Origin: Moniliella sp. 'wahieum'
Taxonomy: Eukaryota
Assembly: GCA_003971905.1 (NCBI GenBank)
Contig: RSEE01000049.1
Span: 1 to 64,000, forward strand
Length of the DNA stretch: 64,000 nt
Reading direction: 5' to 3'
Below are positions 4,282 to 63,020 of the stretch, in pieces (within the stretch, counting starts at the first letter, position 1; each line of letters begins with the position of its first letter). A program made the translations under genes and the position numbers. Below the pieces are notes generated by a model. The model was not told the DNA's origin and ran no database searches. It worked only from the letters and a program-made list of their open reading frames with translations.

Positions 4282-4313
4282 CCTCCCTCTCTCTTCGGAG
4301 AGAGGGGGGTTTT
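4282..4313 (+). other. 12-bp stem with cUUCGg tetraloop followed by TTTT (3'-ETS-like or terminator-like hairpin)
   Basis: CCTCCCTCTCTC-TTCG-GAGAGAGGGGGG then TTTT, 54 bp downstream of the 28S breakpoint. The function is inferred. Confidence 0.5.
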
Positions 4314-11194: not shown

Positions 11195-12159
11195 GGGCGG
11201 AGGCCGGGGGAAGACATGGGGCCAGCTGCACGCCTGGAGCCCAAGGCGAGGCGGGCGGCGCGAGGAGGAGGCCCGGGGCGGCAGCGAGGCAGCAGAGGCA
11301 GGGCTTGCCCTTGTCCAAATTCACCAGTGCTGCCACGACGGCCGAAAGCGCGGGCCACGAGCGATTAGGTGGAGGAGGCCTACGCGGCCGTAGGATGGCG
11401 GTGGGGGGGGGGCATGTTGGCAGCGCACGGTGCGCCAACAATGTTGTGTGACATGTGACGCGCAGATTCGACGCCGTGATGCATGATGGCCATGCAGGAC
11501 ATGTGACGGCAATTTCCCTAGACCGACGCTGCGGGCATTAGGGTTACTACTTGTTCTCCTGGCCTGGGACTATGATCCTGGACAATTGCAGCTGGATCGG
11601 TGGAGATGGAGGGCGCATCCATCCTGGGCACGCTCGGTACGGGGGAGACCGTCACCTCCAGTAGGCGAAATCTCACCTATAGTCTCGACCCTGGTCTGTC
11701 TCGCTTAGCCCTGACTGTGCCAGGTGGCGTTTGCGCCACAAGATGATTTGTTGTGTGCATCAGCCTAGCTTTCGTGTTTCCTTTGATCAATCTATAGCCT
11801 AGAGAGTGCATTATGCTACCGGTGTTTACACAGTTGGTTCTTCAGTTGTAAGCGGGCTCCGTACCAGTGCTTCTTCAAATGTCGAAACAGATCATAATGA
11901 AGATTCATACATGACCCTCTCTTTCACCGTGTGCGGCACCCAGATGCTCGCTTGACATGGTAAAATGGAGAAACCCGCGGATACCACATTGCCGGCATCC
12001 CACATTGTTTCGGATACTTCAGGAACGCAGGAGCAGGAGGAGAGAAGTAGACACCCAAAAGAGGGACTCTGGACGAACAGAGGCGCCAGAGAATCAACAT
12101 GGGACTGCTTGATAGTTCAATGATTGTTCAATGATTCTCATTTGCTTTCCTCTTGTGCT

Positions 12160-13814
12160 TTAGAAGGGGTTGGGCGCATCAATGTTGATCGACACGCCTT
12201 AACCTGAACATAATTTTCCAGACCGTATGCCGAGCCTTCACGGCCAATACCTGATGCCTTGTACCCACCAGTCGGCACTTGGGCCGACAAGGCGAGAGGT
12301 ACGTGTTGATCCACACCGAGCCCGCCTCGAGGGAGTGGGCCGTCTTGAGCGCCTTGGAGATGTCGCGGGAAAATATGCCCGCGGCCAAGCCATACATGGA
12401 ATCGTTGGCCTTGTGCAGCAGCTCGTCGTGATCCTTGAATTTGTGCACAACCACCACTGGACCAAATATTTCCTCGCGATTGATCACCGAGTCCTCGGGG
12501 GTATCGACAAAGATAGTAGGCTCAATGAACCACCCATTCAGCTTGCCCTTTCCAACGTACCGCTCTTCCGGCAAAGGATTGCCACCCGTCACCAGGCGCG
12601 CTTCGGCCTTGCCAATCTGAATGTACTTCATGACGCGGTCATATTGCACCTCGCTGATCTGCGGGCCGAGAAAGGTAGACGGGTCAAAGGGGTCACCCAC
12701 CTTGATGGCCTCAAACCTCGCCTTGGACGGCGAGGAAAGGCTCATAAGTTTCTCGGCCACATAGATCCGCGATCCGGCACAGCAGGCCTGGCCGTGTTGA
12801 AGGTAGCGCCCAATGTGCACCATGAAAGCGCCTGTTCCAAATCGGCATCGTCCAGCACTACCACGGGGATTGCCACCCAGCTCCAGGGTTACCTTTTTGA
12901 GGTTGGTACTGGCGCCGCTTGCATCACCATGCGTCCGACACGTGTGGAACCGGTAAAGGACACCTTGTCAATATCCATGTGCTCGGCAATCGCGCTACCC
13001 GCGCCTGGTCCGAGACCCGTGACAAGGTTGACCACGCCAGGGGGAACCCGGCTTGGTGAATCAGTTCAAACAACCTGAGTGCCGACAAGGGCGTATTCTC
13101 CGCCGACTTGATCACCACCGTGTTGCCTGTCGCTAGGGCGGGGGCCAGCTTCCATGCTGTGAGCGTCAATGGGAAATTCCACGGTACGATGGCACCGCAT
13201 ACACCGACTGGTTCCAAACGGGCATACTGGAACAAGTGTGGGTTCTCCCCAGATAAGACTTGGCCCGTGTGCTTGTCGGCCCAACCGGCAAAGTAGCGGA
13301 ACGCCTCGACGACTTGGGGGATATCAATTGCCTTGGCCAATGACACTGGCTTACCGCCGTCGATCGCCCGATCGCAGCCAACTCGTCCAAGTTCTCTTCG
13401 ACCAGACGGACGAGTTTGGTGAGCATCGCAGCGCGTTGGGGACCGGTTGTCTGCAAGCCCCAAGTCGTCTTGAATGCGCGACGGGCCGCCTTGACAGCCA
13501 CATCAACGTCATCTTTATCGCCTTGGGCAACATCAGCAAGTAACACCTTGGTGGCTGGGTTGTACACCTTGAGCTGCTCCCCCGTCTTGGCAGAGACCCA
13601 TTTCCACTGGAGAGAGCGAGGGGTGTGGTTAGAAGAGATGATTTCCAAGAATGGTCCAGGGAAGCGGCAGCACTCATGAGAAGGTAGGGAGCAGAGTGGT
13701 ACGTACTCAATGTACAGGCCGCCGCAGAAGCTGGACTTGGAGCCGTCGGGGAACGTGAGGTTAACAGTCGGCACAGGTGATGAGCCGTGAGGAAGAGTTC
13801 GCCGTAGAAGCCAT
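12160..13814 (-). CDS. NAD(P)-dependent aldehyde dehydrogenase (ALDH1/2-like)
   Basis: [45 protein letters not shown] (catalytic Cys) and EEIFGPV. One intron at ~13609-13707; indels are probably sequencing errors; stop TAA at 12160-12162. Confidence 0.93.
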
Positions 13815-15761
13815 ATTGGAGAAGGAGGAGGTGGAAGAGGAAGAGGACCAGGGAGAGGAAGAGCGATGGTAAAAGATGTTGAAAACGGAGGAGGGGAGAA
13901 GGAAAGAGACGGGGTTATATATACGAGGCGCGCACACCCACTGCAAGATAATGGATTGGTTAATGGCCGAAGCCCATCCGCCGCACGGCAACAGTACAGA
14001 GGAGACGAACGTGATGTTGACGGCGGGGAGGGGGTGCAGAGCACCATTGCCTACTGCACCGCGAGCGAGATTCGGAGTATCAGCCACTTGTCCCTTAGGG
14101 CGTGTGCGCAGAGACGGACAACAAAGGAGTGGGATGGCGGAGTTGGTTGGGGTTGTCGCCGGGGGCCGCTGTGTGCGAGACAGCTGCGGCGGCGGCAAAG
14201 CAAGGTCGCAAGTTGTTTTGCCGCCAAAAACGATGTGGAGGAATATTCAACTATGCTACGGAGGATATGGATTGCAACCGACACCAGACTGCTGTGTGCG
14301 TCTCGACGCCGAGCGCGAAGCGGCAAAATCATCGATGGATTACAAGAAGCACACGTGCTCACCTACAAAAACTTGGAGAGCATCGATGATGAAAACTCTG
14401 TGGCAATGGCTGTCTTTGGGAGAATGGCAGGACGACTCGCAAGAGCGGGACAAGAAAGATAAACAGTGACTATGACTAGTGACTAGGGACTATAGTGACG
14501 CGCCCAGTGACGTGTGACGAAGAGCAACTCCATCACACTTGCTCCTCCGGCCTCTGCAGCACAGGAAGGGTGGGTCGAATATGTCTGCCCGGAAAAAGGT
14601 AGTTAAGTACGTTAAACGATAAACGTTAACTGCGCTATGTATCTTCGTGCTGCCACACCGAAGGGCATCTGGTGGGGGCTAGGTCATCGACATCGATCAT
14701 CTGTGGCTATACTGAGTACACTGAGTACTCACTTGTCGCGGTCTCACGCGTCACGCGTCACGCCATAACGTCCTACGTCCCTCGCAACGCGCAAATGCTA
14801 ATCCTATAGCGGGTCAGAGAGCCTCACCGAAGTCACTCCGCAGCATAGTCACTAGCTTCACTACAGAGACGCTCCTCAGGCTCAGCGATGAGGCTCATCC
14901 CTCATCGGCCTCATCCTTTGTCGAAAGAAGCACAAGGATCAACAGCAAGTGAAGTCTGTAGCGCTGTCGACGCGTCGAAGCGCGAACCGCAGTCAAATTA
15001 GGCAAGGTGGAGGTCCGAAGGACACTCGGAGGTACACCTGAGCCACAGTATGTCCGCCATCACATGCACACAATACGTACCATACACAGGAGATCTCCGA
15101 TGTTCAAGAAGACCACAGTTGGGAAAAGGGAGAGTCTACGGAGCTTCCGGGAGTAACAACGTTTTGCCCCCGTTGCCGGAACTGCGTTGATGGCTTGCCT
15201 CGATTACCATGAAAGCACTGGTAGGCAGACTGCAGAACAGTCTTGGGTGAGCTAGAGAACGGCAAAAGTGTGCTACCCAACATAGGTGCCTGCGGTTTGC
15301 GGCGTGACGCGCGACATATATGGAACACAACCACAGTCAGTCCAGGCCTGCTCAGGCGCTCGGGCCTTGAGGCAGCCCAACAAGTGCTAACCGCGCCGCG
15401 TTACGCAGCACTGCTCAGATCTGCCTCAGAACGGCCTGGTAGGCCTGGTGGCTCGTGCGCGTGAAGCGTGACATGGGGCTTGTGTGACCACGTGACCATT
15501 TGCCACCACGACTGGGGAAGAGACTGGGAACACCAGCACTGGCCGCGGCCCTTGCCTGCAGCCACCGATTGCAGCCACCATCGGACAGCCCGGCAGTGCC
15601 GGCGTTCCGGGTAGCCCCGTTCCGCCGCTGTTGCGCCCCCAGGCTGCCTTGGCCTGCGTGCATCCCCTCCCCCCACTGATAGGCATGCCGTCCAAATCGC
15701 GCAAAGCCAAGCACGCCAACCGCGCCGGCCACACACCGCCCAGAGCCACGGCGTGCCCACC

Positions 15762-17234: not shown

Positions 17235-17455
17235 TTCTACCATTGACGTTGGCTTTCCGCCGAGCTCGCTTCTGATGTGCAGGCCGTGGCAGCACAGGTG
17301 CCAACGCGGGCAGTACTCCTGTAGCAAGTGTTCCCCCGTCACGATACTAGTAGGCACAGTGCTTAATTCCCCCCACTACAATCCCGCAACGGGCTGCCCT
17401 CTCCCGACTAGCAGCAATGCATTAACCCATATGTCCCCACTGTAACCGCACAACG

Positions 17456-17575
17456 ATCCGCTCCATAGAACTGTGAAAGCACCGCGTCCCGTGCGATCTG
17501 CAAAGGTCCCCACAGTGTCGCCCAGTCAGTAGGACGACGGTGGGGGACCACGTGGGAATCCTAGATGCCGTGGTT
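17456..17575 (+). rRNA. 5S: 5S rRNA-like copy (probably a pseudogene; 5' helix disrupted) with T-run terminator
   Basis: ATCCGCTCCATAGAACTGTGAAAGCACCGCGTCCCGTGCGATCTGCAAAG...CACAGT..CCCAGTCAGTA..GGTGGGGGACCACGTGGGAATCCTAGATGCCGTGGTT then CTTTTT. The ACTGTG/CACAGT helix is intact. Confidence 0.88.
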
Positions 17576-17966
17576 CTTTTTGTCCCTTTCTCCATATCTC
17601 CGTTTGCACGCACCCAGCCCCTGCCCATCACTCCCTTGAGTCCCCCGTTTCCACCACCCAGTAGTAAGCAGCTGCACCCCATCGTACCTCCTGCCTTCGT
17701 GTCATCGTCTCTCCCCACCGCCTTTCTTTGTCCCAGATCCCTATCTACCCTTCCTACTAATCGCCTCACGTATCCCTCCCGACGGCGCACCAACCGGAGT
17801 ATACTGTGGAGCTACGTTCTTCTCTCGGCAACTGCTCACTCTTAGTAGAATGTGAATACATAGCATGGTTACTCCCACCTAAGTGGTTGCTCTCCTCGGG
17901 TAGGGGTAGACTCCGCAAGCGGAGGAGCTACCCATTCTTCCTTGCCTTTTAGCACAGTCCATCAAC

Positions 17967-18973: not shown

Positions 18974-21900
18974 GCTGCTGGAACGAGCTCCTGATGGATG
19001 GGTGGGTATGGTGTGGGCGGCGAATGGGGTGTGATATAAGAGGGGCGATGGGGGGCGTGCGGTTGGAGACGTAGCTCGGAGATGCTTTTCTTATATAGAG
19101 GCACTGGCCAGGTCCAAAAGGCATTGTCTCCAAGGGGTTGGTGGGTTGGGCAGATGCGTAACGGCGGAGACAAGGGAGCATCAAAAAGCATCTTTATATC
19201 GTGATTAAAGCGTATCGAGATACTGCAGACAGGACCACAGAAGAGGCACTTATTTACGATGCCTGACCCCCCTGGGTCCGCAGCCAGCCAACTCGGCCAG
19301 GGCGGTGTGGTGCAGTGGATGCGATGGTGCCCCACCCATGTCCGAAAGCCAAAAAATAGTACTAGAACAAACGCAGCGTTCTTTGCCAGCCAGCAACAAA
19401 CAAGTCGCCACAACAAGCCATCTCGGCGCTCGGCAAAAAGCTTATACTAGAGAGTGCACCCAGCTTCTGTTGCGTGCTGGTGGTGCGCTGCCAGCCACCC
19501 TTGGCGATTGCCAGCCTATCCATATCATCCACTGTCCCGCCGAGCCTCGGAGAAGGATGGTGTGGCGCAGTCGCCGCCTCTCGTCTCTTCGCGAGACTGA
19601 GAAGTATATACTGCCTAAGTAATTGGACTATATTGCGCCTATACCAATGACTTTATCCCTGGTGTGAACTGCTTCACATGCTTATATCCCACCGTCGTTT
19701 TTTTGCTACACTACAGTGTGTGTCTGTGGACCGTCACGGCGTCACACCCTTCTGCCCTTGCCCAACTGTTATTGTTGCCCTCATCGCCCTCTCACGCCGG
19801 CGTTCGAGTGGCGCCTGGACCAGGGTGAGGTGGAGGAGCCTATAGAGACACTGGTGAGCCCGCTGTGCTCTTGAAGGAACCAAACAGAAGGATGGCCGCT
19901 TCTCGCTGACAATATTAACATTTTCCCGGCCGGTGTACCTTTAATAACAGGGGGGGCGGGGGGCGGGGGTTATGCATTTGGGTTACCAGTTATGAGCGTG
20001 GGCCGTCTCGTCGGTTTTATCGCTGCAGCACACCGTGGCATGAGTGCATGAGGTGCAAGCGCTGCCCCGTCCCCAACCCCCCGCGTTGGCTCGTTCCTAG
20101 CGAACTTTTCTGTCAATAAATCACCTCAAACGGTTTGAATATTGGATGGCGCATCTGCATCAGATCTCAGATTTTCACGCATCATGCATCATGCATCGTG
20201 CTAGTATGCATCATGCATCATGCATCATGCAAGTTGGCCAGCAAAGATGCTGCAATTTAATCACATGCCACGCACTGAAAAAGAGAGTCCGCCAGCGGCA
20301 TTTAACAAAACAACTTGCTTGGCAGTCACCGGTTTCTCTCGTTGTTTTCTCTCTCGAGCCTCTCCTTGGCCCGATCGGTCTAATGCATCATGCATTTTGT
20401 TCCCCCTCTTTCCGTTTCCTGGCAGCGCTGTACCGGCACCACAAAATCCGCAAGCAGAACAAGATAGGTCGCTGTGAGCGCTGGGATCATACGCGTCACG
20501 CTAGCCACTTGCCGTTTTCCCAGAGAGCGGCAGAGGGTCTAGGAAAGCAAGGCTTCTGATGCGCCCGTGTATTGGCCTGTGTGGTGATGGATTAATGCTT
20601 GGCTAGACCACGGAGTCTGGCCGCCTGTTGTCACTTGTCATCTAGTCACATGCCCCTGTCGCTCTTGTGCCTCGCGTGAGGCGGGAGGGAGACAGCGGGG
20701 CAGCATGGGTTGTCGCTTAGCTGCTCGAACCGCTAGCGCAAGCCCCTGCCTGTGCTACGGCGGGGATGGCTCCAGAGGGATGTGGTTGGGGGTGAAGTTT
20801 TTCCTCGGACTGAGAACAGAGGTACTGAGTATTCAGATGAGTTCGCAGCAGACACCAGCGCGTCAGCCACTGGACAGTACTCGTGTACCTGCATCTGCTG
20901 TCTCTGCGGACAGTCCCCCTGTACGGGGCGGGCAGAAGGTGAAGCTAAGACCATAAAGCCTATCACTTGCAGCATGGGGTTGAAGCGTGACGCGTGACGC
21001 ATGAGGCGCCGGCAGCAGCACACTGAGGGCCTGCGGATCGCCGCAAGACACGGCACGTGTGCCCCTCGCGCATCCAGCGCATCCCGCAGCGCCCAGCCCC
21101 ACCACGCCCCTCCCCGGAGCACGTTGTGTGTGATGGGTCTCAGCCCCCCGGCCGCTGCAAAGACACGTGCGGGCCAGCCCAGGCCAGCCTAACGAGCTAA
21201 CCGCATACGCGCATAACCGGGAGGCGGCAACTGATACCCGGGAACCAGTGTTCCGTCCAGAAGGCACCTGCCCCGCTGCTCTGCTGCCCCGCTGCCCCGC
21301 TGCTTCGCTACCCCAGATCGCCCCGGGCCAAACACAGCTATCGCCGCAACCGCCAAGGACCTCGACACGCCTCTCGACCTCTTCGACTGCTCCCCTGCCC
21401 GTCTCTACAGCTGTCACATGGCATCACCCTGTTTCCTTTCCACCCATCTGGCCCACCCAAACCCACAAGCTCACACTACCCCACCGCCACGCGTCCCCCG
21501 CGTTACCGGTTACCTGTGCCCCGAGTGGGCACCAGCAACTGTCCCTATAACAGCCACGTACTCCTAAGGTCCACACTATGAGAAGTCACTAGTCACTAGG
21601 TCACTAGTCACTGAATCACTGAATCACTAGCTCCACTGGCAACTAAGCAGTATCCACCCTTCTTGGAGAGCCTAGCGTCGTTGTGCCGTGGCCCCCAACA
21701 GCAGGTCCCAGCACCGGACCAGCAACCCTCGGCAACCCCAACCGCAAAAGGCTTAGTGAATAATGGTTGAGGTCCGAAAAGGTGCGATCATTAAGCGTGA
21801 GGCCCGGCGCCGGAAGCTGAAGCGGCCTCTGAGGCACAGTCTCATCGTCAGACAAAGGCACGCCAAACCCCCGATAGGTCCCCACGGGGCTCCACCCATC

Positions 21901-22281
21901 GCCCCCATATCTCACACCCAGTGCCTGACTGGGGCCTGGCAAAGCCAAGAACAGCGCGGCTCTCTCCAGCCGCAGCTGCTCGGTCTCCACATACGTACCT
22001 CAAACGTGTCTTCAAGCTTCAGGAGGATGCAGGATGCATCATGCATCACATGCCACAGGTATACTGCCTCTCTGAGATGTGAGATCTGGTCGCTGGCGGA
22101 TACACCGAGTACTGAAGGACACTCCCTTCGAACTCCCCCTCCCCTCCCTGCCCCGCCAGCGGGGTAAGTTCGAGCCAAAGCAGGAGAAAACGGGATATAA
22201 ATACGACCCCATTTCTCTACTGCCCACTACTTCTCCACCCCCCCCCCCACACCCCTCACTCCCCTTCCAGCCCCTTGCACT

Positions 22282-23984: not shown

Positions 23985-24708
23985 CTCGGCCGGTGCACGT
24001 AGGTTGAACGTTGAACGTTGAACGTTGGTGGCAGCCAATGAGTTCTGAGTCTGTTGCCTTTCTGTTGCTACGGGCACGATCTGGGGGCGCCTCCGCTCGC
24101 TGGTTCACAGCTGCATCACATGTCACATGTGATGCCATGTCACAAGATCACGGCATCCCCATCGAGGCATCTGCGTCGTTGCCTCCCACAAGGGCGATTA
24201 ATCGGCAGTGCATCCAAAAGGCGGGTGTTTGCGGTGCGGCGGCCTCAGGGTACAGTGAGAGGGTTTGATGGTGGTCGTTGCTGAGTGAGCGGCGATGAGC
24301 TCACTAGCAGAGCAGAGGGAGCGATGAGGAGTGGTTGCTGAGCCACTGAAAACGAGTACTGCAGCCTGAAGGGGGGACGCGGGAAGATTGGCCAAAGTGG
24401 GCGGTTAATAAGAAAAGCCGAGTTGTCGGCCGGCCGGCATGGGGCGAGTGGGCCGCCATCTAACGTCATTTGCCTGAGCCGGGCGTAATTCGATTTGGGT
24501 AGGGTTGCCGGGGGAGGCGGATTTGAAACGGGCGCGGGTGGCCTGCCGCGGACATATAGTGCTCAGACGGAGTACCCCAGTCCCCAGTACTCAGTTACTC
24601 AGTACAGGTGAGCGGGGTGGGTATCCACTCCGTCGGGATCATTGCTCCGTCGATGGCGCTAGCTTGGGCTTCCCGCTCTTTCCCACCATCTGCTTTGATT
24701 CGTCCACC

Positions 24709-30645: not shown

Positions 30646-33199
30646 TCACCGTGTGCATGTTCGGTACTGGTAGTCTCATCTGTCGCACGGCCCCTTCGCT
30701 CCATTCGACACCCATCGACGGGGTCGGCAGCCATATGATTCTGTACTCTGTACTCTGTACCTCTCCCTCGACCTTTATGCTGCCGCATTACGCGTTACGT
30801 GGCACGGGAGAACCCACTCCCGTTCTCTGTCACCATGTCACATGGCACTAGCCACTTACGACCGTTGCCTTTCTGAGCATTGTATTTCTATGCCAATGGT
30901 TTTTCCCATGCCCTCTTTCTCTTTCATGCCTGATAGGGGCGTAGAACGCGCCGCCAGCCTGCTCCAGACCGAGCCGGGAGATCCGAGGGCGGGCATAGAG
31001 GTATCTGTACGTCGTGATAGTCCTACTATCCAGAGCCCATGCACCAGCACGCTATAGATGCTATAGGGAAGTATTATGGGGAGGAGAGTGTTGAGTGTCG
31101 GACCACATCATCTGGATTTGAGACTCAACAGTTTGGTTCGGCACTGGTTTGGTTTGTCCTGCTTTGTGGGCTAACCGACTTGGTGGTCTGAGTTACATGA
31201 AGGTTCTTTTGCTCGAGTTATCTTTATCTTTCTTTCCCTACTTTGCGTATAAGTAGGACGACCCCTCGCGGGTATACAATGCTATTATTCACCACACCCA
31301 CTCCCTTTGGCTTGCCTGATAGACTCCGCTACTCTACAGAGAGGGAGAGACCAACCCACCAACCAACCAACCAACCAACTAACTAACTAACCAACCAACC
31401 ACAGGGCACAACGGATATCCTTCAAGCAACCAAAGCAACCAACCCCAACTCGCGGGAGAGACTTCAAGCTTCAAGCTTCAAGTCTCATGTCTCAGTGCGT
31501 GCAAGCATCATCGAAAAGAAAGGTATTATTTCCCACGGGCAGGCCAAAGTCAAACGAAATGAAAATCCCCATCGGCTGCGATCGCAGTCTGCAAGTCCAA
31601 AACGTCGCAGGCGAGCGAGTGAGCGGGGCAGGCGGGTAGGGGGTAGGCGTAGGCGTAGGCGTAGGCGTAGAGGTAGAGGGAGGGGTAGAGGTAGGTATTT
31701 CCAGATAGTGCAACTTATCTCGGGGGGCACCGAGAAGGCAACAAAAAACGGGAGAACAAGCCAAAAAAAGGAAAGGAAAAGAAAGGAAAGGAAAGTGAGT
31801 GTTGAATCTTCAACGGGCAGAGGGGGTCGGAAAGCCCAACCTGCGACGCGTGGCAGCCCGCGGACCGCGGGGAAGGACATCTGGCCGGGAGAGAGAGAAA
31901 CGGGAGGGGGCCATCAAGGGCACAAGGGTCGGATCAACTCCATGGGAAGAAAAGGAGTTGAGAGGTAAGCAAAGAAGAGATCAGAAGCAGGGAGCAGCGC
32001 CAAGGCAAAAGGCAAAAGCCAAAGGGAAGATTGAAGATCCGATAGGTTGCTTGGTACGCCTCACCGGTTCACCCGAAAAGGCAGAAGAAAGCGCGGGTGA
32101 GGGAAGTATTGGGGCCTGAGCCGGCAAGTAACATGTACCTACGCGGGGATCCAGGCCGAGGGTCGAGACGGCAGACCCGGTACCCTTGCTCTACACCTCC
32201 GTCGACCGACGCGGGGGAGGGGACTCGTCCGACCCCTCCTCACGACCTTGCTGCGGTGGCGTTATCGGCACGTCGTCCTCGCGCCCTACTTGCACGCGGC
32301 GGTCCGAACACGAGATGTGCGCTGCCCAGCGGCATCTTCACCCGCGTCTTCCTCCCGCGCCTCCTGGGCCGACGGCCGGCGGCGTGCTTCCTTCGTAGGG
32401 GAAGGATCGTCCTCGCGCCCACCCATCTCATCCACCTGCTCGCCCTCCCATCCATCAGGTAAGCGCGACGTGCGAGACACACGCGTCGAACGGACGCACG
32501 GGACGCACGGGACGTACGGGGCGCACGACGGTCCGGGTCCGGGTCGGTTACGAGGCGCAGACGCAGCTGCGGCGCTACGTGATCCGTGTGGCCAGGGCCG
32601 GGCAACGTCAGCGCGGGGTGTAGCGTCGTTCTGGCTCTGCGTGCGCGCCAGGTGACGAGGGTGGCGCGGGACGCGGGTCGCGGTCGCGCCGGCCTGGGGC
32701 GTAAGGGTCACGGGAAGAAGCGCCGTACCGGCCAGCCCGGTCGTCCGGGTACACGGTCCGTGGGATCCGTTCCGGCCGACCTCGTGGGTCAGACAGAGGG
32801 GGTACGCGGTACCGCGACGGCGTGGGTAGTTTGTTTGAGAGGGCGCGCCAGTGCGTGGGGGTGGGTCGTTCCGCCCGCCGACGAAGAGGGAGCCGTATTA
32901 GGCTCATGTTTGTCGAGGCGGTGGGTCAAGGGCGACGCAGCCAGGGAAAAGCTTCGTGCCAACGAGGTGGTCCAACCGGTCCATTTTCTGCCTACTGATT
33001 TGGCGCGTGTGTCGGGCCGCTGTCCGACCCGGGTTCGTCGGCCGAGCCACGAGATCGGCGTGGCCGGCTGCGCTCGCCTGGATCCAACATCCCACGTGGG
33101 TGAGGCGCAAGCCCAACGCCCCGTTCGCCCCGTTCGCCTCGTTCGCCCCGTTCGCCCCGTTCGCCCTGTTCCCGCGCGGGGCACGGCGCGAAGACAGGG

Positions 33200-37879: not shown

Positions 37880-38580
37880 AGGATTGGGCTCCAATGGCTG
37901 TATCCTCAAATCAGTCACTAGTAACCGGTAACCCTGGTCCGTGCGCGGGGATGCGTGCGTCGGAAGCAATCAGTCTCAAGCTGCCGTCAACGTTCAACAC
38001 ACAGTGTCCAGAAAGCAGCACGCCTGGCCAAGGAGAACGCGCCAACCAGCAACTCGAAACCAACCTGCGGTTCTACATCGACGGTTCAAGCCCCAACTGC
38101 GCTATTGCCCTCTTGCCCTCCGCCGAGTTCGCTGCCAACAACATGCGTGAGTGCAATGAAGCACACGCAGGACAAACTCCCTTCAATAAGTTGATCCTAA
38201 TAAGCCACGAGTCTACATCCGCATTATGGCTGCCGGACGCTCCGCTTCGCCGTTGCCCCCGCTTTACCTTGTGGGCCCTTCAAATTATTGGATAAAGTCG
38301 ATGAGAATGCCCACCGGTTGGACTTGCCCCGCGACCTCCATGCCATCAATAACCCTGTAGTCAACGTGGCCTACTTGGACCCTTTCGACCTGACCGTGTC
38401 GACGCCCGCTCCTATCCCCCAGAGGTGCCGGCGCGCCAGAGGTTGTTGGCGGTCAGCAGGCCTGTCGTGTCGAGGAGATCCCCGACCGTCGACGCGGTCG
38501 ACGGGCCTACCATAGTTCGTTCATTGGACTGGTCTGCCTACCAGCCGCAAACGGGTGGATCCCAGCGTCGGAGCTCAGAG
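37880..38580 (+). mobile_element. Degenerate Ty3/gypsy (chromovirus) integrase, GPF and chromodomain relic
   Basis: GQGERANQQLETNLRFYI..LLPSAEFAANN..GQTPF (integrase core end); GPFKLLDKVDENAHRLDLP..NPVVNVAYL (GPY/F domain); FVHWTGLP..NGWIPASEL (chromodomain). A purine run and TGT at ~38586 may start the 3' LTR. Confidence 0.8.
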
Positions 38581-39811: not shown

Positions 39812-39911
39812 TCGCCACCTTAGCCACCGTTCCTCCTTCGCCACCTTAGCCACCGTTCCTCCTTCGCCACCTTAGCCACCGTTCCTCCTTCGCCACCTTA
39901 GCCACCGTTCC
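39812..39911. repeat. 26-bp tandem repeat TCGCCACCTTAGCCACCGTTCCTCCT (~3.8 copies) at the 5' side of the CRE element
   Basis: Directly visible; followed by a 19-bp-period duplication GGAACGTGGCACCGGTC at 39957-39992. Confidence 0.9.
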
Positions 39912-42614: not shown

Positions 42615-42704
42615 ACGTAGCGTTCCCCTGTCCCAGCCTTAAGCTCTGTCAATGAAATGGACGTGACTTAGGGATGCAGATACAGAATAGTAGCCATTCA
42701 CTGT

Positions 42705-44456
42705 CTATGTCCGGCACGCAATGTCCGTCCGTTCCAGGATGGCGAGTTGCGCACCCAGTGCCCAGCCCAGCTCCCGTCCCTGCAATCTTCTTGTCGGTGA
42801 TGATGGTGTGCGAGTCATCCAGCTCGTAGCCCAGCGTGAGCAGCGTGTAGAGGTAGGTCATGTCCAGGCACGACTCGGGCCGGCCCTGGAGCTCCTTGAG
42901 TGCGTCCGGGTACTTGGCCGGTGGCCACCGGTCCGGCCACGTCGATGGATGGTGGCATACATCCTTCACCGCCTGGTTCAACTCGGCAATGGTCAAGGTG
43001 GGCCCCATGCCGAGCGGGTGCAAGCGGTCGTAAAAGTAGGACAGTGCTACTACCGGTGCGCCCTCGGGTAGGCTCTGTCCCAAGCTCGGCTGGTACACAC
43101 CCCAGCAAACGCACAGGGATCAGCAGCGCAGGGCGCGTGCTTGTCCAGCACTGTCTCCACCACCGCCGCACACGCGTCAGAGCCAATGATCTCCATTCCC
43201 TTGAAGCGATGTTCCCCCTTGACCTCGCCCACGGCCGCGGGCGGGGTTCCGTTGATGGCCGGACCGGCCCGCAGAGGCAGGCGGCAACAGCGTCACGTTA
43301 ATGTTCTTCTCCACGCCGCTGGTCAAACAGTTGTGCGGTACGAGCCCTTCCACCGTGGGCCGGTGTGGGTTGCGGGCCTGGGCCAGGCCATGGAGGAAGG
43401 CAGAGAGGGCATGGACCGCTTCGCGCACTTGCATCAGTCCGTACCCCAAGTAGGAGTTTTGGTACAGCACATGTGCGCGGCCGGCCAAGTTGGACAGCTC
43501 GTAGACGTGCGCACCAGGGCGCATGGCATCCTTCGCTCGACCCTGGGGCTCAAACACGATCTGGGTACTCGCCCCGCCCAGGTCCAAGACGGCCGCCGTC
43601 GGGGCGGAAGTATGCTTGCCTCCAATCCGACCCAAGAGGTAGTTGACCGTAATCCACGCATACACTGCCTCCTCGGATCCATCCATAATCTCCACTGCAT
43701 TGTGCCCCGGTGCGTCGGCGAGGGGGAAAGGGTATTGGGTCTGAAGCATGGAGCGAACGGCAGCCAGGATGTCCTGGGCTTCCTTCTCGCCCGTCAAACG
43801 CAGTCCGGCCGTAGCCTTGACCACAATCGGTGTGCACTTTTGCAGTTCGGCAGGCACACGTTCCATTGCCGCATCCATCAGTTCACGCAAGCTATTCGCC
43901 GCTTCTTCCGGACGACCGGCGTACTTGCTCAGGCCACCCTTCTTGGCCTTGAACAGCTCGTCCTCCAGCTCAGGCAGCGCTGCCTGTCCAGCCTTCTGCG
44001 CACACACATTGAACTTGTACACGTGGATCCGGCTGCCTTGGCTGCCAGCATCGATCACCAGGCCGTACCGGACCGCGCCGGGGACGGTGCACTGCGTCGT
44101 TTTGACAGGGTCATCAGCGAGCGCGGGACGTTGGCGAACGTCGGCCAGGGGGTTGGAAGAAGCCCGGCCCAGCCGGCCGCCTTGCCACCGGCAGACGCCA
44201 CAGCGTGTCCTACTGAGCTGACCGAGTTGTTTTTCCCCGACGAAGCCCATAGGGCCAGGAGGAGCAGCAGAAGGATCGCGGCCACAAGACGGAGTGGGGT
44301 CACGGCCCGGCGAAAGCGGGACTTGCTGGGCTCGGCCAGCCCGCCCGAAGCCAGCGGGCTCGGCACGCGACTGATGGGCGGCGCAGTGACGGGGAGGAAA
44401 GGCTCGCGGTCCGCCATGTGGCTCAACTCCATCGAGTCGCGTTCGTTGCCGCCCAT
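42705..44456 (-). CDS. GDA1: Golgi guanosine diphosphatase (GDA1/CD39 family)
   Basis: N-terminal TM segment plus apyrase conserved regions VIDAGSQGSRIHVY, KATAGLR, DGSEEAVYAWITVNYL, LDLGGASTQ and ELGWALGA. Confidence 0.9.
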
Positions 44457-45068
44457 TTTGGGTAGAAATGTGGTGGTGGCGGTGGCAGCCGATTTTTTTT
44501 ATTGCGTCCCGCGCTGTCCATCGCCCGCCGCCGTTGACGTGGAGGGAGAAAGGGTGAGGGGGTTTCGTACTGGACGGTGACGTGGACGCTCACGTAAGGG
44601 CCGGGGAGCTGCGGGCGAGTAGCTAAAAACAAGGCAGAAGGCAAAACTGCATCTGGTGTGATGCATGTGATGTCACATGTCACGTGCCACATGTGACGCA
44701 CACGGCATGGAGTCAGTCGATCGATGGGGAAATGAGTAATAGACTGTGCCGCACGCCGGCGCTTCGACAACTCCGCCCCCAGACGTATAGCAACACGCGT
44801 GGCAAAGGGCACTGAAGAAACTTATCCAACACTTAAGAGCGAATGCGATCGGTTGCTGCGGCCCCTCCCCGTGGGTGAGGGCTGATGGCCAGAGTATTTT
44901 AGCACGGGAAGTGGAAAGTGAGGGAAGAGGGCAGAACGAGAGACCAATAACAGCTAGCAGTACTCATGGACGCTATGCAGCTACGAGGGGGTCAAGTACG
45001 AATGGTGCATTGGCGCCCAACCGCAAGCCATCGACCGCAACCAACCGGACCCCAGGGTTGAAACTGCG

Positions 45069-46121
45069 TTAGATGGTAGCTGCGTCAAACACAAAGCGGT
45101 ACTTGACGTCGCTCTTGTACAGCCGGTCCCAGACATGGTTGATGTCCTTAAAGCTAACCAGCTCGTAGGTCGCCACAATGTCATGCTGTCCACAAAAGTC
45201 GAGCGTTTCTTGGGTCTCCTTGGTGCCGCCAATGGCCGAGCCCGCCATGGACCGGTTGCCAACCATGAGGGGGAAGGTGTTGAGCTTGGTAGGCCCAATG
45301 TGGCCCACGACGGCCAGCACGCCATACGGCTTGAGCAGCTGGAGGTACGGCCCAAAGTCATGGTCGACACTGATTGTGTCAAGCACAATGTCATACTGCG
45401 ACGCGGCGGATTTGAACTGTTCTTCGTCGGTGGTGATCAAGAACTTGTCCACGCCCAGTTCCTTAGCCTCTTGCACCTTGCTCATCGAACGCGACGAGAG
45501 CGATACTTCGGCGCCCATGGCTTTGGCCAACTTGATCGCCAAGTGGCCCAGTCCGCCCAGACCGGCCACCAACACTTTCTTACCTGGTCCCGCGCCGAAC
45601 CGCTTCAAGGGCGAATAGGTAGTGACGCCTGCGCACAGCAGTGGTGCCGCTCCGGCGGGATCCAGGTTCTCGGGCACCTTGAGTACAAACGTGCCTTCCA
45701 CCACAATGTTCTTCGAGTAGCCACCATAGGTGACTGCCCCATCCAGTTTGTCGTGGCTGCCATAGGTAAGCACAGGGCCTTTGGCACAATGGTTCTCCTC
45801 TCCTTGCTGGCAGTAAACGCAAGGATGCTCGTCCGTCACACACCCCGACTGGACCATGCACCCTACCCCGACCAACTCGCCCAGGTTGAACCGCGGGTCT
45901 TTGGTCGCGCCTACACGACCAATAATCTCATGCCCCGGCACCAGCGGGAACGGCACCGGCCCCCAATCGCCATCGCGCGTGTGGCTGTCCGACATGCAAT
46001 AGCCGCAGTACAAAATGTCGATGGACACATCCCCCTCGCGCAGGTCACGACGTTGCACCGTTCCCGGGCCCAAGGGGCCTTTGAACTCGAGTGCTTGGTA
46101 CACGTCCACAGTGGTAGGCAT
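45069..46121 (-). CDS. Zn-dependent NADP alcohol dehydrogenase/aldehyde reductase (CAD/YahK/AdhC-like), intronless
   Basis: Intact 350-aa ORF: CGYCMSD, PGHEIIG, VGVGCMV, structural-Zn Cys cluster, AAPLLCAGVTTYSPL, GLGGLGH, GSAIGGTKETQETLDFC, KSDVKYRFV. Confidence 0.95.
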   Translation of the reverse strand: MPTTVDVYQALEFKGPLGPGTVQRRDLREGDVSIDILYCGYCMSDSHTRDGDWGPVPFPLVPGHEIIGRVGATKDPRFNLGELVGVGCMVQSGCVTDEHPCVYCQQGEENHCAKGPVLTYGSHDKLDGAVTYGGYSKNIVVEGTFVLKVPENLDPAGAAPLLCAGVTTYSPLKRFGAGPGKKVLVAGLGGLGHLAIKLAKAMGAEVSLSSRSMSKVQEAKELGVDKFLITTDEEQFKSAASQYDIVLDTISVDHDFGPYLQLLKPYGVLAVVGHIGPTKLNTFPLMVGNRSMAGSAIGGTKETQETLDFCGQHDIVATYELVSFKDINHVWDRLYKSDVKYRFVFDAATI

Positions 46122-48466
46122 GGTCTAGGTCCGTTTGCAACCAGTCAGTCTCACGGCGGGCGAAAATGGAGAGACGCCAGGGCATAGACGCTGTAATACT
46201 CACTGGGGGAGGGGAGAAGTAATAACGAAGAAGCGGGGAGAAGACACAGGAGAGCGTACCAGGTTGGACGTATTGGATGAAAGAGACTAATATATATAGC
46301 AGTGACGCTGTCGTATGCCTCCATGGAAAAACAGACGGAGAGACGATAGAGCGCCACACCACAGCCACCGTCCCGTGCTGTCTTCCTGCCCTGCCCGCCT
46401 AGATCGGTTCCAGAAAGTTTGGTTCCCGTTCTCCCACCACTGGGCTGTGACATATCAGCACCAAAACCAACCATCTCGCGTGGCGGCCTACTGAGGCTGA
46501 GGCTGTTGAGGCATAATGCATGAGGTGTGCCATGATACATGATATGAGAGTCTCACGCATCGCATAGGTTCCAAAAGGTACAGCGACGCTAGCTTCACAC
46601 TTCGCAAGGGCTTCAAGCATAAAGAGCGACATCAAGCTTCAAGCTTCAACCATTTCAACGTTCAACTGAGTTCTCAACTATAAAGTCGGGGCGGCTGATC
46701 TTCAACGCTCTTGCTTCAAACTGCAACGCCTTCAGCGTTAACGGATGTCATCGATTCCCAACAGCAAGACTCCACTAATCAGGCTTATCATGTATCAATC
46801 GAATCATCAATCAGACATCAGGCCCCTCAGGCCTCAGGCTGAGGCCTCGGGCTGAGGCCTCGGGACCTCGACCGCGCCAACAGAGAGACAGTGCTGGGTT
46901 TCTCGGTTGCCGGTTACCGGCCGCATACTAGACCGTTATACATCCTTCCACAACGTTTTTCCAATATCTTCTGAGCTCCAGTTTCAACCGAGCCGAATAG
47001 GCGGAGCCACCGGCCATAAGGCCTAAGGGTACGTCCAGCGACGAGAGCCTACCAGAGACTGAGGTCTAAGGACTAAGGGCTAAGGACTGAGACGGCAGGC
47101 CGGTCTGTTGCTCTGGTGTGTATTACTGGAAAGCACAGCTGAAACAAGCCGAAGCCGACCCGACCTCGGGGCAGTTTTGAACGTGCCGAACGTTGATCGT
47201 GTTGAAAATCCTCCTCCTTCTTGAAGTCTATAGAGAGCTAAGCGCTAAGCGCTAATGGAAAGCAGGTGAGTCTGCCTGATACTTCATTTGAAGCTTGAGG
47301 CTTTGAAGCTCCTGAAGAGATAGCGAGGCTATAGTGACGATAGCGAGGAGGGCAAGTTACGCGTTACGGCTGATGAGGGTAGAAACGTCCACCGTGTCGC
47401 TGCATGAAGCCCATTAGGGGTGGCCGGTGAACCATATCGTGTCACAGATGCCAGTAGCACCAGCGTCAGCGTCAGCGTCTTTGGCGCCATCAACTCTAAA
47501 CCCCGCGAGACGCGTCCCTCTTCTCTCGGTACCTAGTGCATCGCCCCCCGTCCATCGCCAAGCAGAGGATACAGCAGTGGTGCACATGAGCCTCATGCCC
47601 CAAGCTCCGAAGCTCACAGCTCCTAGCTCGGCGATAGCTGGAGGTAGGCGAGCGCTGCGTTACCTCGTACTCATCGAGAGGCGCTCATCGGTATTTGAAA
47701 TAGACCGCCCACGTCACGCATCAACCTGTCAGCAGAGATGTCATGATGCAGATGATGCACTTCCATCAATGACATGAATGACACGACAGACCCTCAGCTT
47801 GCAGCTTGCACCGACACGGACAGTGGCCACTGCCAGCGACGTGTTTGCATGTATTACCGTCCATTTTGAGCCGCGCGCTGACAGCAGGGTGCCCACTAGC
47901 GCGCGAGCACCCCTTGAGCTTGAAGCATGAAGTTTGGCCCCTTTCGGTTCGGCAGCACGGACTACCGGGCGCCGGACGGCCGGTAGGGGTGTGGTGTAGC
48001 GCGTTCTTAGATCTTAGATCTTAAACGCTAGCGGCAAGCACATCAGAGACAACTCCGAGGAAGACAGCCGCCAGCGGAAAAACAAGAACGCTTCGATTCC
48101 ACGTCCTCGGCAGTCCGCCCACCCAGTAGTACCCTTCCCAGCCAGAAACCGGAGCGCCTGACGCATGACGCTGTGCCAGCCTCCTGAAGCCTGACATGTC
48201 CTGGGACTTCCGTCCCCCTCGTCCCCGGCGCAGGCCGAGACAAGACCCCGCCCCACTACAGACAACACACGCACACAAAGCACACGTCCCACTGGGCTTG
48301 CTAATAGTCCGACGACCGTCGTGCGTCTGCCTCCCTTCCTCCCTGCCTCCCGTCCTCCGCTCGTCCACTCATCCACTCATCCATCCACTCATCCATCCAC
48401 TCATCCATCAATCTCCATCCATTGGTACCCGACCGGTCCGGCCCAGGGCCAGAGGGAAGGGTAAGT

Positions 48467-51827: not shown

Positions 51828-52080
51828 CCACCCGGCCTGCTGTGGAGTGATACCCGCCTGGGAGCCCCGCCCTCTGCCTGTCGCCTCTCTGACTCACTCC
51901 TTCCCCCGTCTTCGGACGCGCGGAACGGGGCGGAATGCGCGCTGCACATTTCAATTCTAGCGTTCAACGTTCAACGCTCAACAATCAGGCTGGATGCTGC
52001 TGGGCATCCGAGCGGACTGGACGTCTAACGGCTACATATAGCAGACCTATCCATCCACGCCGCTCAGCCGCTGCATGCGC

Positions 52081-56572: not shown

Positions 56573-56647
56573 TGGTGAGCGGTGAGCGTGAGCGGTGAGC
56601 GTGAGCGGTGAGCGTGAGCGGTGAGCGTGAGCGGTGAGCGAGTGAGC
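56573..56647. repeat. Compound minisatellite alternating GGTGAGC/GTGAGC (13-bp period)
   Basis: GGTGAGCGGTGAGCGTGAGCGGTGAGCGTGAGC... is directly visible upstream of PSY2. Confidence 0.9.
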
Positions 56648-57534
56648 TGCCTGCGTCGGGGGCTGGCCAGGCTGGAGGGGGCGAGTGCTGGCTAGTGCTG
56701 GCGTGGCCACCGCGCATCACCCGCTATCACCACACCACGCATCCTGCTGCTGCCTCACGCACGCCTGCCACACTGCCAGCGCGCTGCGAATCACATGACA
56801 TGTCACACTGGTTACACCGCATCACACCGCATCAACCGCACACAGCGCCCGTGCGGCCCTCCGCCTGGCCCACGCACCAGCGGCCGAGTGCCCGCGCGGG
56901 ACCAACCCTATTCTCCGACGCTTCCGTCCGCAGCGCCCGTGTCCCCTGGCGTTTCCGCCTCCGCCCTTGCGCCCCGTGCTGGACGCTCCGAAGCAACTGA
57001 CGTCACGCGTACGATCAGCGCTCAGCCATGCATCATGCATTGCATCATGCGTCCGCTACCCTCCGCTGTCTCCGCTTCGCCCGCGTCCGCTGGTCCGGCA
57101 CGGCAGGGCACGCGCGCCCGACCTCAATCAACAGCCCAGCGCCACATCCCAGCACCCAACGTACCCCCCCGACCCAACGCCCCCCCCTGGCCGGTGCACG
57201 TACGTAAGCACAGTCGTTTCAGAACACCCGGCATCTGCATCAACGCCGAGTGAGTGATGCGTCCAAACTCTGTTTCCGCCTGTGTGCCAGTTTGCCCCTC
57301 GTCCGTCCAACGGATCATCGATTATGGCACCACCGGTGAATATCACCGGTTGCAGGTGACTCTAATTTCAATTTCACTGTGGAATGGATTCTTGTGTTCT
57401 GCCGGGTGTCCCAGCCGGCTCAAATGTGCTTCTGCAGTCCTAGCCTTCCACAGCTTGAGGCCTGGACCAAGCAACGCTATACGCCTTAATTGTAAGCCAA
57501 CGCCAATGTCAATCCCACTGGCCTGCCAATCGAC

Positions 57535-60005: not shown

Positions 60006-61435
60006 TCAAGCTGCCACTGTCGCTGCGGCCGCCGTCGGCTCAAACGGGGTGGGAGACGTATGGTGCAAAACGGCATAGCCACCCTCGAGGGCGGTCGATT
60101 CAGCCGAGTCGGAAACTTCCACCTCGTCAGTTTCAGCCTCAGCCTCGGCCTCGTTCGACAGCTTGGGCGTCTTCTCCTCCGTCACCGGGGGGAACGGGAG
60201 AACCAACGGGACAAAAGCGAAGCACGGCGCGGCTGGGGGATGGCTTGTGGCTTGGAACGTGTTTCCTCCTCCGTGGGAAGAGCAGCGGTTTCCTCGTCCG
60301 TTTTGGCCATGGCCAACTGGGCATCCAGCTCAGCCAGCTCCCGCTGAAGTGCCGCACGGCGTTCCTGTGTCGCAGACCGCGTGAGCGGGGCAAGGGGGGC
60401 CGAGTGGGGGGTGTCATTCAGGGAGGAGGAAGAGGCGGAGGGGAAGCGGAAGCGGAAGAGGAAGAGGAAGAGGACGCGGCGGTAGCGGCCCCGGTGGCAC
60501 CAAAGATACTAGGGAAGGAAGGCACCGTCGTCGATGGGGCTTCACCGGTCGATGAGCCCAGTGGAGTGGGGACCATCTTTCCTCCTATCGCAGAACGGGC
60601 TTGATCAGCCACCGAGCTGACCCCGGCGGCACCGAGCACTGTGCCGGCCTTGTCCAAGGCTGAGGGGGCATACGCCCGAACCGCACTCAAAAGAGAGGCG
60701 TTGGTGGCGGAGGAAGTGCGCTGCTGGGGCGGGTCCTGTGACGGAGGGGGAGGCTAGCAAGCAGGTCAGCCCATTCCATTGATCGTGGGTTGTAAAGATA
60801 CGTACAATGTTCCACAGTGCCTCGCGGGCCTTGTAGTAGGCACCCTGTCCGGCGGTGAGGATCGACTGCTTCAGAGTCGTCCGGGCCTCAACCACAGCTG
60901 CGTCAATCTCGCGCTCGTGGTCGGCCAAGAAAGGACCGAGGTGGGTGGTGTACAAGTAAGCAGCGCCCTGGTAACACAAATGGATCGTCAGTGCTCAGTG
61001 GCAACTCTGGCTGTTGTCATCGCACAACGGAAGTACGGACAGCAGCGTACCTGTGTCTGAGGCAGGATCAGCCAGAGTGTAAATGCAAGTTTGCTTTCGG
61101 CGTAGAATGGCATCCTATGCTACGGTCAGTACGCACTTTGAAGATGGAAGCAAAGGGGCAGAGTGGACCTACCAGCGCCAAGACCAACCCAGGAACATCT
61201 CGCACGTCTCGACAACGGCAATGACGGACCAGTACATGAGCCAGGTCTCCAGCTCGGCCACCTCGGTGGGGGACTTGATCCCCTGTGCCGGAGCAGGCGG
61301 AATCCGCCAGGTGTACTGGAATGCGGTGGGGCCTGGACGCGATGGGGCCGTGATGGCCTTGTAGGTGGCATAGAGCGGGTAGACGTATCCCGCCACCGAG
61401 GTGGTGGCCACAATGGGGAGATGGAGGAGCAGCAT
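60006..61435 (-). CDS. TB2/DP1/HVA22 (REEP/Yop1-family) membrane protein
   Basis: AGYVYPLYATYKAI, WLMYWSVIAV, QGAAYLYTTHLGPFLADHEREID; spliced, with a Ser/Ala-rich tail. Confidence 0.85.
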
Positions 61436-63020
61436 TGTGTGGGGCGGGGGCGGGGCGGGTCGGGAAGGAAAGGAAAGGGAAGGTGTCGGGGCGGGAGACA
61501 GCAGAGAAAGGAACCCCAGAGGTGGTGGGCTGGGGGGGAGATGGACGGTGGCTGGTGGCCAGCACTGGGGACTGCTGCTGGGTGGGCAGAGGCAGCTGCG
61601 CTGATTAGAGCGATAGCGATTCGCACAGACGCACTGATGCGATGCTGCGCTGCTATCTTTTTTTTTTGCGATGGACGCCCCCCTGTGTCGCCCGAAATAT
61701 TTCAGCTTTCAGCCCGCTGCCGGCCCAGCCTTCGCCTTACGAGGCCTTAGTACTTAGTATTGAATCCGCCTTAGGGTTGAACGTTGACTGGGCCCGTGCC
61801 CGCTCCCAGGTATCTGCGCCCATCAGTTCCCATCAGTTGCCCTGCGGCCACGCCTGGCCGGTGGGCGTGAATGGATGGAGACAACGACGCCATCAACTTC
61901 AACCGAGGGTGGGCCAACGCCGGGCACAGGGCACCCAAAATGTGGCCTTAGATTCCCCGAGTCCTGCGCTTGATCAAGTTGATCAAGAGTTGATCAACCG
62001 GGTGTCGTCCGCCTCTTCTCTCCTCTCCTCATGGATGCTCTCGCATCTGTATGGCTCCGAGCGAGAGAGAACTATGCGGATACGGATCGGAATACAACTT
62101 CCGTATACTAAGACATGCTCGCAAACTCCCCCGTTTTCCACGCTGTTGAATCCAACCCAACGCCTCTTACCAGATAGGGGGGATGGAGGGGACACTTAAC
62201 TTCGCAACGTTCCAAGAGAAGAGGCGAAGAGGAAAGATGCCGCAGAGGGTATATGCACGGTCGGTAGTACCAGTGCGGTGCGGGGAAGGGCAATCATGAA
62301 TCGGTGGAGATGCACCCTGTAGCGGTATTCGAAGGGAATGGTGCTGACAGTGTCCTCCAGATACCAGAGAGAGAGGTGACAGTAAGCCACAACCCGCTTG
62401 TAGCACACACCACAGTGGGCAGGAAGGAGGCGGCGCGCTGGGCAGTGGCGGAGCGAGAGGTACAAGTGGTAGATATGGGGGCAGCGAAGCGGTGTTGTGA
62501 TACGGGCACTGAAGGATGTAGAGGCTGGCCCACGCGTAGTAAAAGGTGAGAAAAGAGAGCAAATTGTGAGCGTTTCTGGTGGTTTGATAGGTGGAGCATG
62601 ATGTAGATTTTGAAGTGAGGGAATCAGAATTGGACCCAAGCCTGAGGGCATCATCCTAGCTTAATGTCTACCCTCGTCGCGAGCAGGCGCCCTCTGTCCA
62701 TCGCGCTGCTACATCCGAATTCGTCCTGGCTGCTACCGTCCATGGTTGGATGGGTTAACGTTTATAGAATCACGCCGTTTGGTAGGACAGTTACGTTGTT
62801 CCATGAATTTAGGGCAACAGATAGAGAGGTAAAAAGGTGTAACTGTTGGGCGTTGCGTCGACATGACGAGAACGTAAACGTGAAGTACACCAGAACTAGG
62901 GTGGACACGAAGTATAATCAGCAAGGTTGCCAATGATATACGGGAGTCGGATGACAGCCGGGGAAGGATGGGGAAATGACAGGGGGAGGGGGGGGGGGGG
63001 GGGGGGGAGGGGAGGGGTTA

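Follow-up and report, generated by a model that had tools for sequence, protein, structure and literature searches.

A 64,000-nt stretch of DNA from Moniliella sp. 'wahieum' (positions 1-64000 of contig RSEE01000049.1, here C49, from a 69.5-Mb assembly in 223 contigs; hereafter the window) carries between its genes many copies of a motif in which a TNA triplet is followed by a 4-bp palindrome and then by the same TNA triplet, often in tandem with a 7-bp period. The question raised by this locus is what writes such a motif, given that its core differs from site to site. The window codes for fungal housekeeping genes, and the best named relatives of its valyl-tRNA synthetase (ValRS) belong to Ustilaginomycotina (58-62%, Exobasidium first), so the organism is a smut-related basidiomycete. 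We consider it very probable that the motifs are excision footprints (scars) of a lineage of cut-and-paste transposons that target TNA, make a 7-bp target site duplication (TSD) and resemble the CMCT clade (EnSpm/CACTA, Plavaka, ESTA and Transib).

A heptamer class written by its flanks

The motifs listed in a first-pass annotation of the window, made from the sequence alone, are real: all 19 of the 19 checked were exact, and a TGCA array at 20179-20231, outside this checklist, was seen separately. Over positions 2601-64000 there are 42 occurrences of TNA + 4-bp palindrome + same TNA, grouped into 35 arrays and using 12 different cores, in comparison to 1.7, 1.5 and 3.0 occurrences expected from Markov backgrounds of orders 1, 3 and 5 (30 simulations for each order). 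The remaining 15 triplet classes reach at most about 3.3 times their expectation in the window. The palindromic spacer is clearly favoured, as TNA with non-palindromic spacers is found only 54 times against 20-27 expected. None of the 42 occurrences lies inside the gene and rRNA spans (p = 1.5e-9), which were drawn by hand and cover 25,730 bp with 811 of the 2,116 TNA sites of the window; the placement outside coding regions noted earlier was thus confirmed.

The scar class is genome-wide and still polymorphic. Ten contig samples (937 kb, homeologs included) contained 985 occurrences, at 0.4-1.65 per kb, compared with 17 for the ANT analogue, and extrapolation gives about 73,000 units in the genome. 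All 16 possible palindromic cores occur, and one 17-mer array was found 2,280 times genome-wide, its reversed control not once.

The core is templated by the neighbouring bases. At least one outer flank matched it in 31 of the 35 window arrays (about 12% by chance), which can be written as a rule: a site ab-TNA-xy becomes abTNAxy-y'x'-TNAxy or, in mirror form, abTNA-b'a'-abTNAxy. In 631 kb of non-homeologous sequence, both strands included, five forward plus two inverted bases starting with TNA were found 760 times against 2.6 expected, and the full counts for GNC, CNG and ANT were 18, 12 and 3. The asymmetric right and left forms numbered 190 and 178 (1-8 for the same controls), and the middle base of the repeated triplet was the same in 760 cases, complemented in 43 and different in 36. 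A templated flank was present in 248 of 300 isolated units, and symmetric targets gave 3.75 times more isolated scars than unmatched ones. The earlier suggestion of a process rather than a bound motif is supported. In metagenome contigs, an AGCT array pattern matched 120 loci, 110 of them without any rule match for another core; these loci held 14 rule matches in 477 kb, compared with about 6 per 10 kb (median) in the present genome, and the scar grammar was absent from the 120 loci sampled.

Comparison of homeologous contigs revealed the same rule in recent alleles. C149 is a near copy of the window (3.9% substitutions), and C45/C3 form a more distant homeologous pair, 3.6% apart and about 85% identical to the window in ValRS. 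Clean 7-bp indels outnumbered those of 6 and 8 bp both in C49/C149 (34 vs 18 and 15) and in C45/C3 (29 vs 17 and 10); five of the latter 29 represent one C3 site facing a tandem triplication in C45 and were removed by hand, leaving 24. An exact fit to the rule at TNA was found for 15 of the 34 and 13 of the 24, and the analogous rule fitted none of the 5-, 6-, 8-, 9- or 10-bp indels. Set against 7,529 substitutions, this makes a minimum of 28 exact events. As to direction, the scar was present in one of seven copies of a solo long terminal repeat (LTR) and in one of four copies of a second repeat. A 7-bp tandem duplication of already symmetric sites was also considered and ruled out, because the empty alleles are often asymmetric. 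The two contig pairs (about 3.7% divergence within and 15% between in ValRS) may themselves reflect a hybrid, a polyploid or a mixed sample.

Rarer products share the same geometry. With the full 7-mer on both flanks, joints in which the overhangs overlap only in part would be expected to keep it whole. Of 64 TNA repeats in which a full 7-mer stands on both sides of a 2-nt spacer (a gain of 9 bp), 37 (at 35 distinct sites) had an inverted spacer, compared with 3 of 15 for ANT. Forms with a gain of 8 bp numbered 22-26 (overlapping sets) against 2-3; assembly errors may account for some of the +6 and +8 forms. A 5-bp TSD with one-sided P nucleotides was rejected, as its predicted by-products were unenriched (32 for TNA vs 56 for ANT, and 4 vs 1). 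Among the arrays, 87 were homogeneous and 20 had mixed cores, compared with 6 non-palindromic control arrays. Mixed cores require a second hit at the same TNA. Equal re-hits would give a ratio of 3:1, and the slight excess of homogeneous arrays (87:20) may mean that slippage has lengthened some of them.

A candidate element and a proposed route to a scar

A family with terminal inverted repeats (TIRs) ending in CTCACTG fits as the cause of the scars. Thirteen such ends were found genome-wide, all beginning CTCACTG, and none in the control. Four of the five two-ended copies have a 7-bp TSD centred on TNA, instead of the 3-bp TNA duplication proposed earlier: C23:154552-159519 (GATCATG), C34:500340-505284 (GTTGATG), C35:43991-48846 (CATCAAC) and a 378-bp miniature inverted-repeat element on C20 (GATGATG). 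Single ends adjoin GTTGATG (C29), GTTCAAT (C149, end at 779) and GATGAAG (a single locus, seen in the homeologs C23 and C8). TCA or TGA forms the centre of every one of the nine independent sites, against a background of 3.7%. The TIRs are about 65 bp long and accompanied by 9-11 bp tandem subterminal repeats; such repeats beside TIRs are a feature of CACTA elements. The C23/C8 end is preceded by an existing scar, GA-TGA-TC-GA-TGA-AG, and thus represents a re-hit caught in place. At C8:478694 (L115) an extra CT, as compared with the C23 homeolog, lies between the target word and the element end; it may stem from an aborted excision that added P nucleotides or from slippage of the first two bases of the element, and is unused here as evidence. 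Because all 13 ends begin with CT, TIR remnants could yield one core only, so this source of the palindrome, the first-pass alternative to hairpin opening, gives way to the two neighbouring host bases.

The C149 end has a context of its own. There (C149:1-779, L045) the homeolog ends inside the transposon with a telomere-repeat cap, and a second short TAACCC tract lies near 392. The arrangement suggests that the chromosome broke at the element and that the break was healed when telomere repeats were added, with loss of the equivalent of window 1-11784.

The element interior was taken from one full copy (C23), the other copies being represented by their ends, and is decayed and frameshifted, with retroelement debris. 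A phmmer search with a 134-aa frame against 1.84 billion proteins found two, P0121 (E 2.5e-4) and P0122; P0121 aligns to the interior over 189 columns and also to a PF02992 locus (L086). The H(3)H motif of the interior (HNTLH in L117) and the Glu that follows it align to both proteins. Among the Atlas neighbours are clusters of DUF4218, Transposase_21 and Plavaka, with low member shares. A word-index homolog search with the transposase fragment scored 0 of 567 candidates. Most probably the scars are the work of a CMCT transposase of EnSpm/Plavaka-like type from the CTCACTG family, and relatives with looser target preference probably also contribute. The assignment to CMCT is indirect, as the interior has no Pfam match, and the element is not filed as a member since it has neither CA..TG ends nor a 2-5 bp TSD.

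Searches of the genome with PF05699, PF10551, PF18759, PF18758 and PF13359, all at low sensitivity, gave 0 matches each, and PF02992 gave three loci with neither TIR nor TSD nearby. Tnp2 (PF02992)-like open reading frames (ORFs), likewise with no TIR or TSD nearby, lie at C17:556-559 kb, C62:280-284 kb, C34:515 kb and C127:107 kb; the C17 and C62 copies are 92% alike, with stops in the C62 copy, and the C127 match is surrounded by a large inverted duplication (C127:102702-118000; arms of 2.7 kb and 1 kb, 92-94% alike). A blind scan of 860 kb for TIR plus TSD gave no convincing 7-bp element, no TIR element was found among eight aligned repeat families, and large homeolog indels with readable ends and a duplication were LTR-type with 5-bp TSDs, the rest being without a TSD. 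The CTCACTG-type TIR pattern had 0 matches in metagenome contigs.

On the basis of these sequence comparisons, the following route may be proposed. Insertion with a 7-nt stagger places abTNAxy on both sides of the element, as seen for the CTCACTG family. Excision would then cut exactly at the element boundary and seal both host flanks as hairpins, in the manner of RAG, Transib and Muta1 (PMC5499845), each of which a host nuclease of the Artemis/Pso2 type would open 2 nt off the tip. Artemis opens hairpins at +2, with a 4-nt 3' overhang as the dominant product (PMC2175297). The opened ends would carry the 4-nt palindromic overhangs xy-y'x' and b'a'-ab, and the scars fit either polarity. End joining that overlaps the two overhangs and keeps one would lengthen the site by a net 7 bp, in one mirror form or the other, and shorter overlaps could account for the +8 and +9 products that we observed. 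A scar is at the same time a symmetric site with cohesive overhangs, so that later hits would add exact 7-bp units and build the arrays found in the genome. Of the original proposal, transposon insertion and excision with hairpin opening of the flank is retained as most likely, and its 3-bp TNA duplication is dropped.

Several observations weigh against this reading. One two-ended copy (C11:228241-233089) has unequal flanks, CCTGATG and TATCATC. A or T stands beside TNA in 17 of 18 element half-sites and in only 341 of 736 scar half-sites (46%; p = 2e-5), and the half-site enrichments of elements and scars are uncorrelated; the CTCACTG family alone therefore cannot simply be the whole source of the scars, and other families, or poor excision from A/T flanks, must be assumed. 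The window contains no element ends, and no site both occupied and scarred by one event was seen. The transposase remnant occurs at six loci with no open frame longer than 215 aa, none of 12 element ORFs passed the Pfam cut-off, recognition of the transposase fragment in the Atlas was below threshold, and no intact or autonomous copy was found, which makes for an extreme ratio of some 73,000 scar units to six remnant loci. Neither flank was templated in 52 of the 300 isolated units, against about 12 by chance (41 of the 52 are one base off the rule), 30 of the 58 clean 7-bp indels lack an exact fit, and +10 and +11 products number 0 and 1.

A RAG-like CMCT transposase without resident cargo, or with a few copies moving very often, might act as a standing genome-wide mutator, which we regard as unlikely. 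Were it so, some 70,000 sequence-programmed 7-bp insertions, and with them a whole microsatellite class, would be its work, and the genome would hold a natural hit-and-run recorder of accessible DNA.

Quite unlikely in our view is an enzyme free of cargo, either a domesticated CMCT transposase or an unknown host nuclease, that cuts TNA with a 7-nt stagger, followed by fill-in, hairpinning and joining. It would suit the excess of scars over surviving elements by about four orders of magnitude, their target spectrum, broader than that of the elements, and the TIR-less Tnp2-like ORFs on C17 and C62. However, it needs the filled-in duplication and the hairpins in a single event, whereas insertion followed by excision gives both naturally; real elements with a 7-bp TSD exist, one of them sitting on a scar; and the similarity of the C17/C62 pair and the stops in the C62 copy speak against it as well.

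Replication slippage or template switching, in which two or three bases are copied from the opposite strand and priming resumes five bases back, is very unlikely and, as the way in which the motif arose, already largely refuted. Thirteen of the 28 rule-obeying indels are also plain tandem copies, and homogeneous arrays are in slight excess, as slippage would have it. The other 15 (7 in C49/C149 and 8 in C45/C3) are not tandem copies, so slippage cannot be their maker, nor does it account for the 20 mixed-core arrays. It also offers no reason for the restriction to TNA seen against GNC, CNG and ANT, and leaves unexplained the fixed 5+2 geometry, which equals a real TSD.

We find a selected protein-binding lattice or a structural element of promoters highly improbable. 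The motifs are clustered and strictly non-coding in the window, but any 7-bp frameshifting insertion would be kept out of exons, the core is free in sequence, and units come and go between homeologs about 3.7% apart.

The PIF/Harbinger-like element favoured in the first-pass annotation, with a 3-bp TNA duplication and 2 nt of each TIR left behind, is scarcely tenable. TNA does occur in duplicate, and mPing accepts either C or G in the middle of its TSD (PMC4561436). This version is refuted by the empty alleles that are asymmetric, since the bases inserted there can be predicted from the flanks; the identity of the element is contradicted by the 7-bp TSD of the four copies, by +9 products with full 7-mers and by a net gain of 7 bp with a flank-derived palindrome, as well as by the flank-predicted cores of the isolated units and the occurrence of all 16 cores. 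Excision of PIF/Pong elements is generally precise, according to the same article, and PF13359 had no match in our low-sensitivity search.

A sequencing or assembly artefact is next to impossible: the assembly has many 1-2 bp indels that frameshift many genes, yet homeologs that were assembled separately carry the same arrays in orthologous positions, the motif avoids exons, and the two mirror forms are of equal frequency.

Footprints of excision are normally caught singly in reporter assays; here they occur about once per kb and segregate between homeologs. If excision of a 7-bp-TSD lineage is indeed their source, transposon traffic and not slippage would be the origin of a heptamer-repeat class, and the scars would record, with dates, where elements once inserted in a genome that retains few of them. 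They would also reveal the chemistry of the reaction, with a target stagger of 7 nt, cleavage at the element boundary and hairpins opened at +2, which is a direct, testable prediction for EnSpm-like enzymes.

Sites and neighbouring features of the window

The scar sites of the window and their alleles in C149 are listed below.

Table 1. Scars, empty targets and by-products in the window, with the state of the homeologous contig C149
Position	Feature in the window	C149
11449..11486	Single scars TGA-CATG-TGA (left flank templated) and TGA-TGCA-TGA (right flank templated)	
11785..11791	Empty 7-bp target GA-TCA-AT	GT-TCA-AT (1 base different), adjoins element end
14465..14763	Scar arrays: CTAG (14473), ACGT (14620), CGCG x2 (14744)	
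14900..14915	+9 by-product: CCTCATC twice, 2-nt inverted spacer	
20160..20231	GATC scar and TGCA array	Array two units shorter
20988..20997	CGCG scar, symmetric	
21501..21514	CG-TTA-CC-GG-TTA-CC	Empty asymmetric allele CG-TTA-CC
21584..21630	CTAG array	One unit shorter
22012..22048	AGCT and TGCA scars	
24003..24132	ACGT array and CATG array	ACGT array without two units
30788..30797	CGCG scar	Same scar present
31462..31482	AGCT array	
37915..37998	Adjacent CTAG/CCGG units and the ACGT scar of the next row	
37985..37998	ACGT scar	Empty asymmetric allele CG-TCA-AC
44657..44682	+9 by-product (TGTGATG twice, 2-nt inverted spacer), then CATG scar	
46632..47366	Dense scar cluster: AGCT x2, ACGT, GGCC, GGCC, GCGC x2, AGCT, CGCG	
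47372..47378	Empty asymmetric target GA-TGA-GG	Scar GA-TGA-GG-CC-TGA-GG
47768..47783	+9 by-product: AATGACA twice, 2-nt inverted spacer	
48005..48023	GATC array	Same array present
51961..51982	ACGT array	Two units longer
57015..57024	GCGC scar	
61745..61787	CC-TTA-GT-AC-TTA-GT, and ACGT scar at 61778	Empty: CC-TTA-GT (first site)

Other features of the window lie apart from the scars. Its first 2,574 positions (1-2574) consist of 64 copies of a 40-bp satellite, which is also found at the starts of C104 and C200 and, as one unit, just inside the TAACCC telomere tract at the C149 start; it is probably a telomere-associated repeat. Isolated, diverged fragments of large-subunit (LSU) rRNA, with a weak 5S match, occur at 3353-4228 and 17456-17576, outside an rDNA array. 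An insertion at 39750-42670, missing from C149, has reverse transcriptase (RT)-like frames, a 3' end in TTAGGG, no Pfam match and many 3' fragments elsewhere; we take it to be a Cnl1/MoTeR-like non-LTR element. Around the GDA1 gene, window 38660-44835 and C149 29422-32837 differ by an inversion with inverted duplicated ends. At 45069-46121 lies an intronless zinc alcohol dehydrogenase gene, present as a tandem triplication on C45, whose best named matches are bacterial AdhA/YahK-like proteins (50-54%), with only unnamed ones higher (63-77%); an old horizontal transfer is possible. Outside the window, a 2.5-kb insertion at C45:126261-128787 is a recently active small LTR element, copies of which are on C5 and C49; its 240-bp terminal repeats hardly differ from each other, and a duplication of 5 bp accompanies it.

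Comparison with known systems

In the literature searched, which left most subscription papers and supplements outside, we found no genome-wide heptamer class derived from footprints; we likewise found no CMCT family with a 7-bp TSD (Repbase and supplements being outside this search) and no description of EnSpm-like excision chemistry. Two familiar explanations of short repeats differ from what we observed: the cores are templated by the flank and not by the TIR, as a Tc1/mariner-type spacer would be (248 of the 300 isolated units; 16 cores), and not every gain is a tandem copy, as in slippage microsatellites (15 of the 28 rule indels are not).

Among elements with flank hairpins, Ac/Ds (hAT), studied in plants, S. 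cerevisiae and C. albicans, likewise leaves P palindromes of the flank through hairpin opening and end joining (PMC5873905). Its palindrome is, however, odd-centred on the complement of the element-adjacent base, whereas here the centre is even and neither flank base is lost. Elements of the hAT group mostly have a TSD of 8 bp, as opposed to 7 bp in the candidate element, the interior of the latter is CMCT-like, and the hAT dimerisation domain PF05699 gave 0 genome matches in a search without any control match. Muta1 of Aedes aegypti (a MULE) forms a flank hairpin of 43+43 nt, consistent with a boundary cut, but it has an 8-9 bp TSD and more than 90% precise excision in yeast (PMC5499845), and PF10551 had no match here.

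A 7-bp TSD is shared with two other basidiomycete elements, hAT7 of Puccinia and Kyakuja (KDZ) of Laccaria (PMC12730594), for which neither a TNA target nor a footprint is described in the available part of that article. Kyakuja has CA..TG ends and a KDZ domain but no TIRs, whereas TIRs are present here and PF18758 had 0 matches; hAT7 carries a hAT transposase, and PF05699 and PF18758 had 0 matches here, with no control match either.

The CMCT clade, which also includes CNEST of Cryptococcus, resembles the candidate element in its short TIRs, subterminal tandem repeats, CACTG within the terminus and remote similarity to Tnp2, DUF4218 and Plavaka proteins. The signature of the clade, H(3-4)H before the catalytic Glu (PMC12730594), is present in the element interior as HNTLH...E; for the full DDE triad and the C(2)C motif, the interior offers a frameshifted, interrupted sequence with no Pfam match. 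Members of the clade mostly end CA..TG and make 2-5 bp TSDs according to the same article, and CNEST makes a TA TSD (PMC12810828), whereas the ends here are CT-CACTG..CAGTG-AG and the TSD is 7 bp. The candidate element would thus extend the clade past its published TSD range.

A close parallel to the proposed chemistry is offered by the P nucleotides of V(D)J coding joints, made from RAG hairpins by Artemis:DNA-PKcs, together with Transib excision, in which an even-centred palindrome is likewise derived from the last two flank bases. The present scars differ in that the joint links two copies of a 7-bp TSD, mostly at one fixed length, and in that germ-line fixation has taken place tens of thousands of times.

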